Source: Alkalispirochaeta sp.
Lineage (GTDB): Bacteria > Spirochaetota > Spirochaetia > DSM-27196 > Alkalispirochaetaceae
DNA length: 64,000 bases
Assembly: GCA_965601925.1 (NCBI GenBank)
Contig: OZ271854.1
Span: forward strand, 3,168,001 to 3,232,000
Direction of reading: 5' to 3'
Made by a program: the position numbers. Below are positions 42,001 to 51,000 of this stretch, in pieces. Position 1 is the first letter of the stretch, and the number at the start of each line of letters is the position of its first letter.

Positions 42001-45000
42001 CTCGCACGCTCATCGTCGCCGCTACGGCGAGCGGCGCTGCATGACATTCGACGATACGTCGGAGCGAGTGGCGCGACCCCGCATCACAGTACCCATTGAC
42101 GTCGAGTATAAACCGTGTTAGATATTTTGTATACAGAATTGATCGTCGCTTCAGTCACTGGGACCGGCGGCGATGCACGGAGGAGCGCGATGTTCAAGTA
42201 CGCCATCATTACCGGGTTTCTCGGAGAGACCAAAGATCGATTCCATACCTACAACGGCCCCATATCCTTGGAAGAGAAGTTTCGGCAGGTGGCGTCGATA
42301 CCGCACTACAGCGGTGTGGAGGTCGTCTATCCCTACGAGGTGGGACCCGCCGAGGAGGTGGTCGCAACCGCCGACGGGACCGGCGTTTCGTTCGCCGCGG
42401 TTAACGTCAATATTAAGGGCGAGCCGGAGTTCGTCTCCGGGAGCGTAACCTCCCCCGACCCCGCGATTCGTGCCAAGGCGGTTCGGTTCATTCGAGAGGC
42501 AAAGGACTACGCCCACCAAGTCGGTGCGCCCCGCGTCACCTGCTGTCCTCTGGGGGACGGGTTCGAGTTCATATTCCAGGAAGACTATCGCTCGGCGTGG
42601 ACGCGCCTCGTCGATTGCTTCGGCGAAGCGGCCGAATATCGGCCGGAGATACCGCTTTTGATCGAGTATAAGCCGAAGGAGACGCGACGGCACTGTTATC
42701 TCAATCGTGCCGCAGACACGCTCGTATTGGTGAAGGATATCCGCAACGGGGCGTTGGGTATCACGATGGACTACGGCCATTCGATCTACGCCGGCGAACA
42801 CCCGGCCGAGACGCTGAGTATGCTCCACTACTCGGGCCATCCGTACTATGTGCACATCAACGACAACGACAAGACGTGGGATTGGGACTTCTTCACCGGC
42901 AGCCACACCTTTTTGGAGTACGTCGAGTTCGTGTACTACCTGAAGAGGTACGGCTACGAGGACTTCCTTACTTCGGACACGCACCCCACGCGCTGGTCGA
43001 CGGCTCATATGTTTGCGATTAATGCGCGTGTTACCGAGAAGGTCAGCCGCCTGCTCGATACGATCGGCCTGAAGGAGATCCAAACCCACATCGAGGGGCG
43101 CGACTATATGGAGACGTGGCGTTTTATCGAGACGCGGATTCTGCGTCTCGTCGACTGATTTCGCTATCCACGTGCGACCGTCCGAGATATCGCGACGGTC
43201 GCCTCTTTTACTAAATCGACCCTTCACAAAGATATGCGTCTCACCTTTCCTCCGTGTCCCGCGATCGATATAATCGATGATGCGGGACAACGGACATTGT
43301 CATGAAACTGATCGTTTTTGTGCTTAATCGTGAAGAATTGCTCGAACGCGTGCTCGAGGCGTATGTTGAGGCGGGCGTCGTCGGCGCGACGATTCTCGAC
43401 TCCGAAGGGATGGGACGATTTCTGACCTACGAGGTGCCGCTCTTTGCGGACTTCAAGGAGTTCATGAAGGGCAACAAGCCGTACAACAAGACGATTCTTT
43501 CCGTCGTCGAGGACGAGGAGTGCATTCCGCGCTTACGCTCGATTCTGGACGAGGTGTGCGGCGGGCTGAGCTCGCCGGGTACGGGAATACTCTTCACGGT
43601 GCCGGTCGACTTCGCGGTAGGGCTCGTCGGACAGAGCGACGGCGACGAGCGTTCGGCCGCAACCGAGATAGATGCAACACCGACACCCCATGGAGGTTCT
43701 CATGGCTGATATGCTCTCTACAATTCTCGATGTGAATGCGATTTCCCTCGACCTCAAGGCGAAGAAGAAGCCCGATATCATTCGCGAGCTGGTGGAGATT
43801 CTCGGTGCGTCCGGCGCAGTGCGCGACGTCGATTCGGTCACGGCGGAGGTGATCGCCAGAGAGGAGCTCGCTACCACCGGCGTCGGGAACGGGATCGCCA
43901 TTCCCCATTGCCTCTCCACCGAGGTGAGCGGCACGGCACTCGCCTTCGGGCGACGTGTTCCCGGCGCGAAGTTCGACGCCGTCGACCGACAACCGGTACA
44001 GCTGTTCTTCTTGATGGTGGGACTACCGGGATCGCACAACGAGCATCTCCGTCTTTTGAGTAAACTCTCGCGTTATTTATACGATCCCGACACCAAAGCG
44101 AGGCTCCTCGCCGCGCCGACACCCGAGGAGGTGGTGGCGATCTTTGCCGGCCGGGAAGGGGCGTAATGCAGCGCGCTTTCCGATGGAACGCCGTACGGCT
44201 CATACTCACGACGTTGTATCTTTGGCTCGGATGGGTGTTATTCACCTGGTCGGTAGCGATCGACACCCTGGCATTGGGGCTGATCCAGAGCGCAATCGTG
44301 GCGATGCTTATGTGGCCGGTGTTCATCGAGGAGGACGAGGCCGCCAGACGGTCGCTGGTCCCGCACATCCATTTTCTGTTGGTGTATCTGGTGTTGCTCA
44401 TCTTCCAGATGTACGTGGCGAGCTTTCGTGTGCTGTGGCAGATTATTCGCGGGCGGATCGATCCGGGAGTGGTCCACTTTCGCACGCGTCTGCGAACCGA
44501 CATTGCGCGAGTGGCCCTCGCCAACTCGATCACCCTCACTCCCGGCACGATCACCCTCTTTCTCGACGACGATCACCTGATCGTGCATTGGCTCGACGCG
44601 CGTACGACGCATTCACGATACGCCAGTACCCTCGTGGCTGAGCCGTTCGAGCGAGTCCTGCGGCGGATCTGGGCATAAAGGGATTAACGTTTCGTGGATC
44701 AGATGCTGCAGTACGCCGTGTGGTTCTTTCTGGGATCGATTCTGGTGAGCATGATTCGCGTCCTCATCGGCCCGACGACCGCGGATCGGATGATCGGTCT
44801 CAATATGGTCTCCGCGCAGATCCTCGCCGTCTTGGTCCTTCAGGCGGTGCGCGAGGGACGCAGCAGCTTTTTGGACGTTGCGTTGGTGTACGATATCTTC
44901 GGCTTCATCGGAATTCTGGCGATGGTTCGATACTTCGGAAGGAGGCGGACGTGAACTGGGGAGTGGTGTTCTTTCTCGGTCTGGGAGTGATCTTCGGCAT

Positions 45001-48000: not shown

Positions 48001-51000
48001 GACGCCGGCTATGCCCTCCTTTTTTGCGTGGGACAAGCTGGCCGACAGCGTCCTCATACTGATCCTCGGCGTCGCTACGTATCTCTTTGTGATGACTCCG
48101 ACCGGCAAGCGTATCTCCCACTCCGTGCGACGGATCGCGCCGCACCTGAGAGCGGTCCTCATCTTCTTCGTCTTCGGTCTGGCGCTCTTTTCGGTCGCGG
48201 CGCTGTTGTAAGCCGACGCGCGGCGCGCCGATATCGACCGCACACTCGTCTCAACGATGCACCTCGCGACCCTCCGCCCGCCTTCGGTGCGCCCCATTTT
48301 TGCAGTCGAGGGTCCGTTTTACTAAGCTTTGGGTGGGAGGCTACGAATGCCGGGCACAAAGAGCACGCCACGTACCGATCGGATTCCGATACTGGATATG
48401 TCCGATACGATCTCGTTGATTCCGATGGTAGGGATCATAGACTCCACCCGATCTCAGTTCCTCATGGAGAGTACGCTCGACTCGATCCAAAAAAAGAGCA
48501 AGCAGGTCGTGATCGTCGATATTCTCGGCATCGCGACGGTCGACAGCGCCGTGGCCGCGCACCTGATCAAGCTCTCGAATGCGACGCGCCTTATGGGGTG
48601 CGAGACGATCATATCGGGTATCTCTCCGGAAATAGCGCAAACGATGGTCAATTTGGGTATCTCCCTCAAAGATATGCAAACGACGAACAGCTTGAAGAAT
48701 GCGATTCTCGCAGCCTACCGGAAGGTCGGTCTGCGTCTCGCGCCGGTCGATGACAATTAACGGCGGGTATTGGATCGACAACGTCTTTGTGGTGCGTCTC
48801 AGACCGGAGGATTTTGCCGAACCCGATATGCCCGTGTCACTCCTGCGCGCCGTGCAACGTCGCGAAGCCACCCGATTGGTGATCGATGTGGCCGAGATCG
48901 ATCTGCTTCACTCGTTGGACGTGAAAGTGCTGGAGGACACCTCGACGTTGTGTCGCATCAGCGGAATCCGAGCCGTCGTGGCGTGCGTCTCCCCGCATCA
49001 CGCGGCGATACTCGTCAACTTTGTAGAGACGTTCGGATTTGAGTGTACCTCGTCGATCGATAGAGCCGTGTATGCCCTACAACGTTAGAACGCTCGAAGA
49101 CGTTGCGGCGGGGCTCGCCCAAATCGAGGCGACGTTGGCGGAGTGGAGTTTCCCGAAAAGGACGCGCGTCGACGTGCTTACGATCTGTTCGGAGTTAATG
49201 TACAACGCCGTCGCCCACGCAGAGGACGGGGCGATCGAGGTCGAACGGGCGGAGGGAGCCGTCGAGATCGTCGCATCGGACCGCGGTGCCGGGCTGCCTC
49301 CGATCTCTAAGGTGTTTGCCGACGGCTGGAGTACGGGATCGTCGTTGGGCATCGGGCTCCCGGGCGTTTTGCGAATATGCGATGAGTTGTTCGTCAGCAC
49401 GTCGGGCACGGGGACTCACATCCGTGCTCTGGTGAGGACCGAATGATCGGCGTTGCCGCGGCGGTGGTGCCGTACCGGTCTCCGGAGACGTGCGGCGACT
49501 TTTTTTTTCATAAGGGCGGTAGCTCCCACGATCTCATCGTCGTCGGGGACGTCGGGGGACACGGGTCGCCCGACCTTCCGCGGATCGCAGAGGAGTGCAA
49601 AGAGACGATACTTCACCACCGCGAGGAGGACCTGCGGCGCATCGTGCCGGAGGTCGACCGCCTCACGAGTCTGAAAAAGACGGGGCTCGTCCTGTGCGTC
49701 GCGCGATTCCACCACCGATTGGCACTCTTTGAGTACGTCGCCGTCGGCAACCTCAAGCTCTATCTGGTGCGCGACGGCACGGCACGACAACAGCCGATTC
49801 AAGAGGGAATCGTCGGTTACACACTTCCTTCGAGTCTCGGCGTCAACGCCATAAAGACGGCCCGCGACGATACCCTGTTGGTGATCTCCGACGGAATATC
49901 GGTACGGGAACGGTGGCTCAACTCGTTGCCGTGGTCCGGCGCATCGTTCGACGAGCTGTTGTCCGAGTTAACCAAGCCGGAGCACGCGAACGACGACGAT
50001 CGCATTGCGCTGCTCATACGGCCGCGCGTCGACGAGGGTGCAGCCGTACCTCGCGTCCTTGCCGATGAGCCTCTGCGCCCGAAGAGCGACGGGTACGACG
50101 AGGGGGATGCTTCGACGCCGTCCGACCTCCTCGACGAGTACCCCTCGACGCCCGACGACCCCACCGACCGCCGAGTGTCGGCGGAGGGCGCGGCGATCAC
50201 CGATCCCCCCGACGATACCGCCTCGGCACCGACCCGCCGCGAAGTCCCGTCCGTGAGCGCCCGCCGGCCGCACCGGGAGTTGAGTCCGTCGGCGACGCAC
50301 GGCGCGGGGGTGGACGCGTTCATCGAGCGTGTTAACAACGAGAGCCGTATCGACGAGTCGCGCTTGGACTGGGAGTGGCTGGTGTTGACACCCGCTCACT
50401 ACCACCGACGGCTCTCATCCAACGTTCGCCGATTCGTCGATGAGCTGGGCGTGGAGCCCCGTAGGGCGCGCAAATGTACGGCGGTCGTCTTGGAGCTGTT
50501 GTCAACCGCCCATACGATTCGATTGTTCCTGTCGTCTACGATGGTGACGATCCTGATAGATTTGTCTCCTGCGGATATCGGGAAGTTCGTTCCCCTCGCC
50601 GACACTGCGCTGCTCATTCGCGGTGCCGACGACCTTCGGGTGTGTCTGGGGTATTTCCTGTCCAATCCGATCGACGTCGACGACGCGACGTGGACCACCT
50701 ATCGAGAACTCCTTCAAAAGGATATCGACTACGACAGCTTCATAAAGATCAAAAAAAACGAGGTCGAAGTTACCAAGTTGCAACAGCAGGCCAAGATGGC
50801 CTCCATCGGCGAGATGATCGGGAACATCGCTCACCAGTGGCGCCAGCCCATCAATGCTCTCGGTTTGTACAACGCGGCGTTGCTTCGCAAACACGCCGTC
50901 AGCGGCCTGGACGACCAGACGATGCAGACCTTTGCGGAAAAGTCCGACGCGCTGATCCAGAGCATGAATCGTACGATCGAAGCGTTCCGCGATTTTTTTC

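Follow-up and report, generated by a model that had tools for sequence, protein, structure and literature searches.

Stand-alone EIIA and PII-like genes linked to Mrp antiporter operons in Alkalispirochaeta sp. and its relatives

Many alkaliphiles rely on the Mrp antiporter, a relative of the membrane arm of complex I, as their main Na+/pH system. The genome of Alkalispirochaeta sp. (G000) has three Mrp operons, and a PTS_EIIA_2 gene adjoins each of them, as the initial annotation had pointed out; by a rough estimate from its 13 EIIA domains and an assumed total of 4,800 genes, the chance of an EIIA at all three is about 2e-7. This raises the question of whether PTS proteins control these antiporters. 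Here, we describe the operon found in a 64,000-nucleotide stretch of contig OZ271854.1 (the window), the EIIA genes at the two other loci, and the relatives of both.

Organization of the window operon

The following features were assigned in the window:

43302..43709, + strand, divergent PII-like protein, 135 aa, operon gene 1 (PII fold of about 110 aa plus variable tail)
43692..43696, + strand, GGAGG ribosome-binding site of the EIIA gene, read from sequence, within the PII-like gene
43702..44166, + strand, stand-alone EIIA (Fru/Mtl/Ntr family), 154 aa, lineage A (PF00359, 110 bits; Arg53, His69)
44166..44678, + strand, MrpE (MbhA; PF01899), start overlapping the EIIA stop
44694..44954, + strand, MrpF (MbhB; PF04066)
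44951..45283, + strand, MrpG (MbhC; PF03334)
45276..45521, + strand, MbhD-like subunit, short form lacking the cytoplasmic tail (PF13244; end taken from the frame)
45505..45756, + strand, MbhE-like subunit (PF20501; GTG start from sequence)
45753..46175, + strand, MrpB/MnhB (MbhF; PF04039)
46177..46515, + strand, MrpC (MbhG; PF00420)
46508..48211, + strand, MrpD (MbhH), sole antiporter-like subunit (PF00361, 204 bits)

The operon begins 400 bp upstream of the earlier call and includes the PII-like gene, which overlaps the EIIA gene by 8 bp; EIIA is thus the second gene and not the first, as had been proposed. The proposed absence of a gap before mrpE was confirmed, with the EIIA TAA and the mrpE ATG sharing one base (TAATG, window positions 44164-44168) and a median of 12 bp from EIIA stop to MrpE match across 51 operons. 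Genes for MrpE, F, G, B-type, C and D were all found and mrpA is absent, which places the complex in group 3 as defined in the available text of PMC8415708. Central Glu, Lys and His residues of MrpD are kept in 73-100% of 45 clade members. The stand-alone group 3 Mrp of Pyrococcus furiosus (mrpEFGBB'CD, operon PF1147-53), as described in the same text, shares the gene order, the single MrpD and the lack of both MrpA and an energy-input module; it differs in that MbhD and MbhE are separate genes in the window and in that PF1147-53, as described there, lists no EIIA or PII gene.

Profile searches detected no IIB or IIC genes in the window operon and no hydrogenase or Nuo-like genes 3' of mrpD, where a STAS protein gene comes next. 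Such respiratory genes belong to a separate, EIIA-free Mrp clade (EIIA in 0/25, Nuo-like genes in 21/25), and an Mbh/Mbs/Mbx respiratory complex was ruled out for the window. A scan for promoters and terminators gave 3 and 4 sites, where 1.9 and 6.3 were expected, and yielded nothing usable. Taken as a whole, the explanation that we find somewhat more convincing than its rivals together is a single operon, coupled in translation, that encodes a stand-alone group 3 Mrp with one MrpD and predicted Na+/H+ antiport, together with two putative cytoplasmic regulators; gene content, overlaps, folds, conservation and the two EIIA lineages are its observed part.

Two EIIA lineages at three loci

The two other EIIA genes, by contig position, are:

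768409-768852, - strand, second EIIA, divergent, with mrpE starting 77 bp away at 768930; an FMN_bind gene lies 3' of it
4981925-4982380, + strand, third EIIA, convergent, with the second mrpD stop 15 bp away

Their orientations are as initially annotated, and the phospho-His motif noted for all three EIIAs was read as GIAIPH, GIAIPH and GVAIPH. PF00359 scores are 110, 109.5 and 108.4 bits (cut-off 27). All three fall below the PtsN equivalog model TIGR01419 (70.2, 80.6 and 67.3 bits; cut-off 138.7), and the model TIGR00848 for sugar-transport EIIA (FruA) is likewise missed (96.8 bits; cut-off 103.5); the closest solved relatives of the window EIIA are PtsN proteins (E 5e-15). The window EIIA represents lineage A. 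The two distant EIIAs are paralogs of one second lineage (B), without a PII gene, and EIIA was therefore recruited to Mrp twice, not three times.

The phospho-acceptor His, aligned with PtsN structures, is present in 120/120 EIIA domains. In lineage A, R53 and H69 are invariant across 72 sequences, and phosphorylation by EI and HPr is predicted; an EI N-domain was found in 98 of 99 genomes, and HPr has 8 matches in G000. The Arg 16 residues before the His, which we take to be an active-site residue, is His in the 768409 EIIA and Asn in the 4981925 EIIA, and it is missing from all 45 Mrp-adjacent lineage B sequences (Asn, His or Ser instead) as well as from two inside-operon EIIAs of the tree. 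Because the His is kept but this Arg is lost, phosphorylation of lineage B is doubtful. These losses, and the PII-like protein being the best conserved product of the operon, would fit phosphorylation-independent accessory subunits, in which the EIIAs (lineage B above all) and the PII-like protein would be structural caps or ligand sensors on Mrp and no longer PTS read-outs; we consider this unlikely given the universal His, the invariant Arg and His of lineage A, and the EI and HPr genes.

Lineage B is less tightly placed. Among its 40 best relatives, 29 have an Mrp gene no more than 400 bp away, with variable flanks: 12 are divergent, 13 point the same way as mrpD, 2 sit between split pieces, 1 is convergent and 1 comes after mrpE/F. 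Another 10 have no adjoining Mrp gene. EIIA is also absent from 11 of 23 clade II Mrp operons, and a lineage B EIIA is not obligatory at Mrp. The convergent type was seen in 10 of 11 operons in full view, with stop-to-stop gaps of 2-94 bp and outer neighbours that differ from locus to locus. The convergent EIIA of G000 also stands at the end of a run of PTS (ascorbate-type), HPr and EI genes, which among 10 convergent loci is found there alone; the EIIA tree, together with this restriction, rules out the third EIIA as a member of that sugar PTS.

An FMN_bind neighbour like that of the divergent EIIA occurs in 2 of 29 loci and was rejected as a conserved partner. It bears on the idea of a split redox complex that includes the single-MrpD module and in which EIIA and PII couple this module to a redox partner such as the lone FMN-binding (RnfG/NqrC-like) protein. 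Single-D Mrp does lack an energy-input module (PMC8415708, available text), but the rarity of that neighbour, the absence of redox genes seen near window-type operons and the ability of the Pyrococcus single-D Mrp to function alone (same source) make a split complex highly improbable.

Conservation of the link and the PII-like partner

An EIIA gene is immediately adjacent to an Mrp operon, or lies within it, in 66 of 82 sampled genomes of the order (G000 included; sample of 120 regions from the 148 non-G000 matches listed, of 209), in line with an earlier count of 62 of 98. The link was initially described as typical of this order; the operon is confined neither to alkaliphiles nor to the order, and the association recurs in two further phyla. 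In the phylum of G496, 30 loci were drawn from 61 genomes and 9 of them carry the PII/EIIA-Mrp operon; in that of G497, all 8 loci, from 9 genomes, have PII with Mrp. In the window Mrp clade, PII and EIIA precede mrpE in 51/51 operons from 6 families, and among the best 80 PII-like relatives in GTDB, mrpE lies 3' in 79 (1 is cut off) and EIIA directly after PII in 78; the genomes are related, so operon and locus counts are not independent. A sister operon type carries the pair inside the operon in reverse order (loci L103, L135, L243, L360, L361), PII-EIIA and EIIA-PII fusions both occur, and in two operons (L216, L222) mrpE follows PII immediately, without an intervening EIIA.

Because the link is kept through such rearrangements and is missing from respiratory Mrp modules, a functional EIIA-Mrp connection is, by comparative genomics, highly probable. 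The evidence argues against plain inherited synteny, since orientation and flanks vary while the link stays and respiratory modules have none. Synteny or shared expression without functional contact would suit the largely clade-bound arrangements, the PTS run beside the convergent EIIA in G000 and the departure of lineage B from mrp in several genomes; we give it a low probability, as the link outlasts changes of order and strand, that run is peculiar to G000 among 10 convergent loci, the pair also sits inside operons and two further phyla share it.

The PII-like protein scores 22.7 bits against PF00543, below the cut-off of 25, and alignments show neither the canonical B-loop Lys nor the C-terminal Arg-x-Arg, which rules out a canonical GlnB/GlnK identity; a separate canonical PII is encoded in G000 (contig 3569929). 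Its predicted structure (pLDDT 91) matches PII at Foldseek E 1e-6 and VIA Z 9.6 (rmsd 2.9, 93 aligned; range Z 9.4-9.6), and its profile matches solved PII proteins at E 8e-6; in this model, the protein has the PII ferredoxin-like fold, with a helical T-loop. The SbtB, PstA/DarA, CPII and DUF3240 subfamilies are tied at Z 9.0-9.8 (PstA E 0.16, SbtB E 0.6). With a mean identity of 75%, against 48% for EIIA, it surpasses every other gene of the window operon in conservation, and its family comprises 1,023 clusters at 50% identity. No NCBIfam model covers it or five relatives, and a cluster look-up of ten relatives gave no informative name.

A candidate gate on cation/proton antiporters

EIIA fused to or flanking CPA2 antiporters is an architecture known from comparative PTS surveys. 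Both EIIA lineages described here are also found next to CPA2 antiporters or fused with them, and G000 has direct fusions of EIIA to CPA2 and APC transporters. Since the same lineages accompany CPA2 antiporters, the link is not Mrp-specific, and the control would be of cation/proton antiporters more broadly. The CPA2 systems share the EIIA lineages and PII-like family with those studied here; their transporter, in contrast, is an unrelated single-gene protein with a cytoplasmic tail not homologous to the Mrp MbhD tail, and a docking domain common to both tails was ruled out (hhalign probability 1%). The proposal of PTS control of sodium antiporters is partly supported: a functional EIIA-Mrp link has good support, and PTS control as such stays unproven at the two distant loci, whose EIIAs lack the Arg.

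Control might instead be indirect, with the module acting on antiporter expression, assembly or turnover through another protein and merely travelling with the operon. Divergent and convergent EIIA genes do not require co-expression, EIIA-PII pairs without a nearby transporter occur (L242, L245-L248, L250), and PtsN acting on the KdpD kinase is known (from a title cited in PMC13104625, whose available text has no mention of Mrp, spirochete or PII). This appears rather improbable, in that the flanks of these operons hold no conserved regulator or kinase, EIIA is fused to transporters in G000, and the overlapping starts and stops, with the short EIIA-MrpE distance, suggest fixed stoichiometry.

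E. coli PtsN (EIIA-Ntr) inhibits the CPA1 K+/H+ antiporter YcgO, the unphosphorylated protein binding with His73 within the interface (PMC11808508; bioRxiv 10.64898/2026.08.14.744764; available text). There too, a cation/proton antiporter is the target of an EIIA that stands alone, belongs to the same family and has the His site. It differs in that Mrp (CPA3) is multi-subunit and lacks a CorC or RCK domain, the site of PtsN on YcgO, which counts against PtsN-like docking; in addition, the present system has linked genes and an extra PII-like partner, and its EIIAs score below the PtsN equivalog cut-off. PII and PII-like regulators of transporters include GlnK-AmtB and SbtB-SbtA (PMC10710835, PMC13249358; available text), which resemble the window protein in gene linkage to a transporter and in fold (Z 9.4-9.6). 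Their targets are trimers that match PII symmetry, whereas Mrp does not, and the window protein differs from GlnK and SbtB in its modelled helical T-loop, its changed canonical ligand residues and its pairing or fusion with EIIA.

On evidence that is genomic throughout, and by analogy with PtsN on YcgO, we somewhat favour a post-translational gate on stand-alone Mrp, and direct binding to Mrp is rated slightly above even. A PII-like trimer and EIIA would form one module that docks on the antiporter from the cytoplasmic side and gates it; EIIA would read carbon flux through phosphorylation from EI/HPr, and the PII-like adaptor would sense a small molecule, probably an adenine nucleotide. More tentatively, unphosphorylated EIIA may hold the antiporter shut and phosphorylation release it. 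Candidate docking sites are MrpE and the MrpG tail. MrpE has 18/167 clade-specific positions and an identity of 61%, compared with 44% for clades II and III; its signal as a docking site is weak because the respiratory clade also reaches 55%. Complex prediction for three PII chains, MrpE and EIIA scored 0.58, with 0.57 when MrpE was replaced and 0.00 when EIIA was replaced; the score may reflect a kept chain and speaks neither for nor against docking. At the two other Mrp complexes, which have a lineage B EIIA and no PII, this EIIA would perhaps dock on a clade-specific cytoplasmic MbhD tail, for which Foldseek gave no match at E 0.001, VIA Z at most 5.8 and Atlas matches below 0.8. A joint reading, rated less likely than not, has these proteins as dedicated regulatory subunits of stand-alone Mrp: the uncharacterised PII-like adaptor would dock EIIA on the unrelated Mrp and CPA2 folds, joining a nucleotide signal with PTS phosphorylation, and the second EIIA lineage would have moved separately from CPA2 to Mrp, lost its Arg and come to bind a new MbhD domain.

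EIIA control of cation/proton antiporters is already known from PtsN-YcgO; the Mrp target and the PII-like partner appear new, as we found, in the literature that could be searched, no report of EIIA or PII-like proteins with Mrp and no protein regulator of Mrp activity. The Mrp-linked EIIA and PII-like proteins are probably an unstudied switch tying ion and pH balance to metabolism. A regulator of Mrp would reveal where the complex can be gated, and a gate present on stand-alone and absent from redox-driven Mrp would make leak prevention in the single-MrpD form, which has no energy-input module, testable. If this reading is true, a large unannotated PII-like family would gain a function, and EIIA control of ion transport would reach a third antiporter fold.

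Mrp operon of the window and its two upstream genes

The window's operon for Mrp, a multi-subunit Na+/H+ antiporter, comprises:

43302-43709, + strand: PII-like gene, overlapping EIIA by 8 bp and holding the EIIA ribosome-binding site
43702-44166, + strand: EIIA gene, directly ahead of mrpE
3' of EIIA, ending at 48211, + strand: mrpE, F, G, MbhD, MbhE, MnhB, C and one D (profile matches)

The initial annotation made EIIA the first gene of this operon, a place that belongs to the overlapping PII-like gene; its gapless EIIA-mrpE junction holds in the window sequence, where stop and start have one base in common. 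An EIIA beside all three Mrp operons of the genome was likewise confirmed: the other two operons, with two mrpD genes each, have one divergent (contig 768409-768852) and one convergent (contig 4981925-4982380) EIIA. The EIIA-Mrp observation is real. Neither mrpA nor redox genes are present in the window operon, and its Mrp is therefore assigned to the stand-alone group 3, like that of Pyrococcus furiosus in the available part of its description (PMC8415708); that it belongs to a split redox complex is highly improbable. Among window-type operons (PII-like gene and EIIA ahead of mrpE) with enough sequence in view (n=37), 31 have one mrpD and 4 have two, with none detected in 2.

The PII-like protein scores marginally below the Pfam PII cut-off, its model (pLDDT 91) matches PII and PII-like structures, and its T-loop, almost invariant in sequence, forms two helices in the model. 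The protein lacks the B-loop Lys and C-terminal arginines of canonical PII; in membership tests, it fell outside canonical PII and EIIA outside PtsN.

Ordinary genes lie upstream (36871-43158; TctABC transporter, GntR/FCD regulator, beta-keto acid cleavage enzyme and xylose-isomerase-like gene). Directly 3' of mrpD (48329-53599, + strand) is a partner-switch-like cluster (STAS protein, second STAS-like ORF without a Pfam match, RsbT-like ATPase, SpoIIE-histidine kinase hybrid and receiver-PAS-GGDEF-EAL protein), which is not a conserved flank of window-type operons.

Distribution of EIIA and PII-like genes beside Mrp

MnhE was found in 91 of 99 genomes of the order (209 matches, of which 150 are listed). 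From 120 fetched regions, leaving out 9 matches with <900 bp upstream and further ones near the bottom of the list, 126 operons were mapped in 82 genomes. EIIA heads 51 of these, each time with PII in front; 13 have a divergent EIIA, 10 a convergent one, and 2 contain EIIA and PII internally. EIIA is absent from 50, one of them relabelled by hand, its EIIA sitting between two operons. At least one linked operon occurs in 66 of the 82 sampled genomes, consistent with the first claim of a link typical of the order. No conserved outer flanks of the EIIA-linked operon types were found, and an explanation by synteny only is improbable.

Clades in a midpoint-rooted FastTree phylogeny of five concatenated Mrp subunits, read by eye, track the EIIA arrangements: EIIA accompanies 12/23 operons in clade II, 10/17 in clade III (10/11 where the view is full) and 0/25 in a fourth clade. 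Nuo-like genes occur in 21 of those 25, and these 21 are modules of respiratory complexes. At one locus (L142), two single-D clade II operons stand tail to tail, with one divergent EIIA.

Clade II MbhD has a conserved tail of ~105 residues (35 sequences; L001:8211-8531 in the divergent-EIIA locus) with invariant acidic residues, predicted to be folded (pLDDT 88) and, judging from Mrp topology, probably cytoplasmic. It weakly resembles one lobe of a periplasmic-binding-protein/LysR domain (Z <=5.8, rmsd 2.9, 80 aligned); long MbhD forms also occur in Atlas clusters from Bacillota and cyanobacteria (scores <0.8).

Searching from the regulators removed the bias of an mrpE-based start. Among the best 80 of 348 PII relatives in GTDB, which partly overlap the order sample, mrpE lies downstream in 79 and EIIA directly 3' of PII in 78, with PII and EIIA fused in one; hosts include Alkalispirochaeta, Marispirochaeta, Sediminispirochaeta, Treponema, Ca. 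Fermentibacteraceae and Ca. Vecturithrix. Two other phyla, those of genomes G496 and G497, matched the PII family in 50/61 and 6/9 genomes. The 30 loci taken from the former comprise 9 PII-EIIA-mrpE and 21 with CPA2 (an unrelated single-gene antiporter family) followed by an EIIA-PII fusion; each of the 8 from the latter is an Mrp operon, of window type in 4 cases, with mrpE preceded by PII but no EIIA in 2 and with the pair internal in the other 2. The window's own phylum has the family in only 32/401 sampled genomes; in 20 loci from these, the EIIA-PII pair is next to Mrp, next to CPA2 or without a nearby transporter, pairs of this last kind occurring in other classes of the phylum (L242, L245-L248, L250).

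A second EIIA lineage

The divergent EIIA as query matched 63/99 genomes of the order at 1e-35. An Mrp gene is no more than 400 bp away in 29 of its best 40 matches but not in 10, the remaining one being outside this count; 13 of 20 weaker matches are directly 5' of a CPA2 gene. A tree of 120 EIIA sequences out of 183 found (window-type thinned to 23) splits PII-free lineage B (support 0.97) from lineage A, whose members come with PII (support 0.98). Within lineage B, CPA2-linked members branch earliest, and the 60 sequences of an Mrp-linked group (support 0.75; 45 Mrp-adjacent, 15 not) include both distant EIIAs of this genome; EIIA was thus recruited to Mrp twice. The order of events is only suggestive, because sequences were sampled for their similarity to Mrp or the divergent EIIA. 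In an additional lineage B arrangement, EIIA is the last gene after mrpD, co-oriented (full operon visible in 7 loci).

The His is kept in 120/120 sequences. Lineage A and the CPA2-linked members also retain an Arg 16 residues before it that presumably supports the phosphoryl group; it has been lost from 45/45 Mrp-adjacent lineage B members.

Two side observations concern gene order: EIIA stands between Mrp pieces in L296, L297 and L298, with a second mrpD behind it, separated from the main operon, and a lone FMN-binding RnfG/NqrC-like gene follows the divergent EIIA (L001:5664-6362; contig 767663-768361) in 2/29 loci.

Proposed control of Mrp and other ion transporters

The genome encodes 13 EIIA domains, some in sugar PTS loci, and its PTS gene set is unusually rich, with eight HPr and nine EI N-domain matches. 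Further contexts are a CPA2-EIIA fusion, an EIIA ahead of another CPA2 and:

L003:7548-9661 (contig 1957547-1959660): bare CPA2 antiporter, then an overlapping EIIA-PII fusion gene
L005:3972-7218 (contig 498971-502217): APC permease-EIIA fusion, then EIIA-diadenylate cyclase

These contexts place the module in ion transport at large. The cyclase fusion connects EIIA to c-di-AMP, which the PII-like protein may bind as a ligand.

The closest parallel to have been tested is PtsN-YcgO: in the available parts of two reports, unphosphorylated PtsN stops K+/H+ antiport by YcgO, whose CorC domain it binds through His73 (PMC11808508; bioRxiv 10.64898/2026.08.14.744764). PII-fold proteins gate AmtB and SbtA, according to the accessible portions of PMC10710835 and PMC13249358. 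Both principles, EIIA control and PII-fold gating of transporters, are thus already known; the literature searched held no account of either applied to Mrp. By analogy, EIIA and a PII-like trimer would jointly act on the cytoplasmic face of Mrp, with carbon flux and a nucleotide signal as inputs; we lean slightly towards such joint gating, and consider both indirect control and a role of EIIA and the PII-like protein as non-phosphorylated caps unlikely. Without an energy-input module, a secondary antiporter could run gradients down when cells starve; this would account for a gate that stand-alone Mrp has and redox-driven forms lack.
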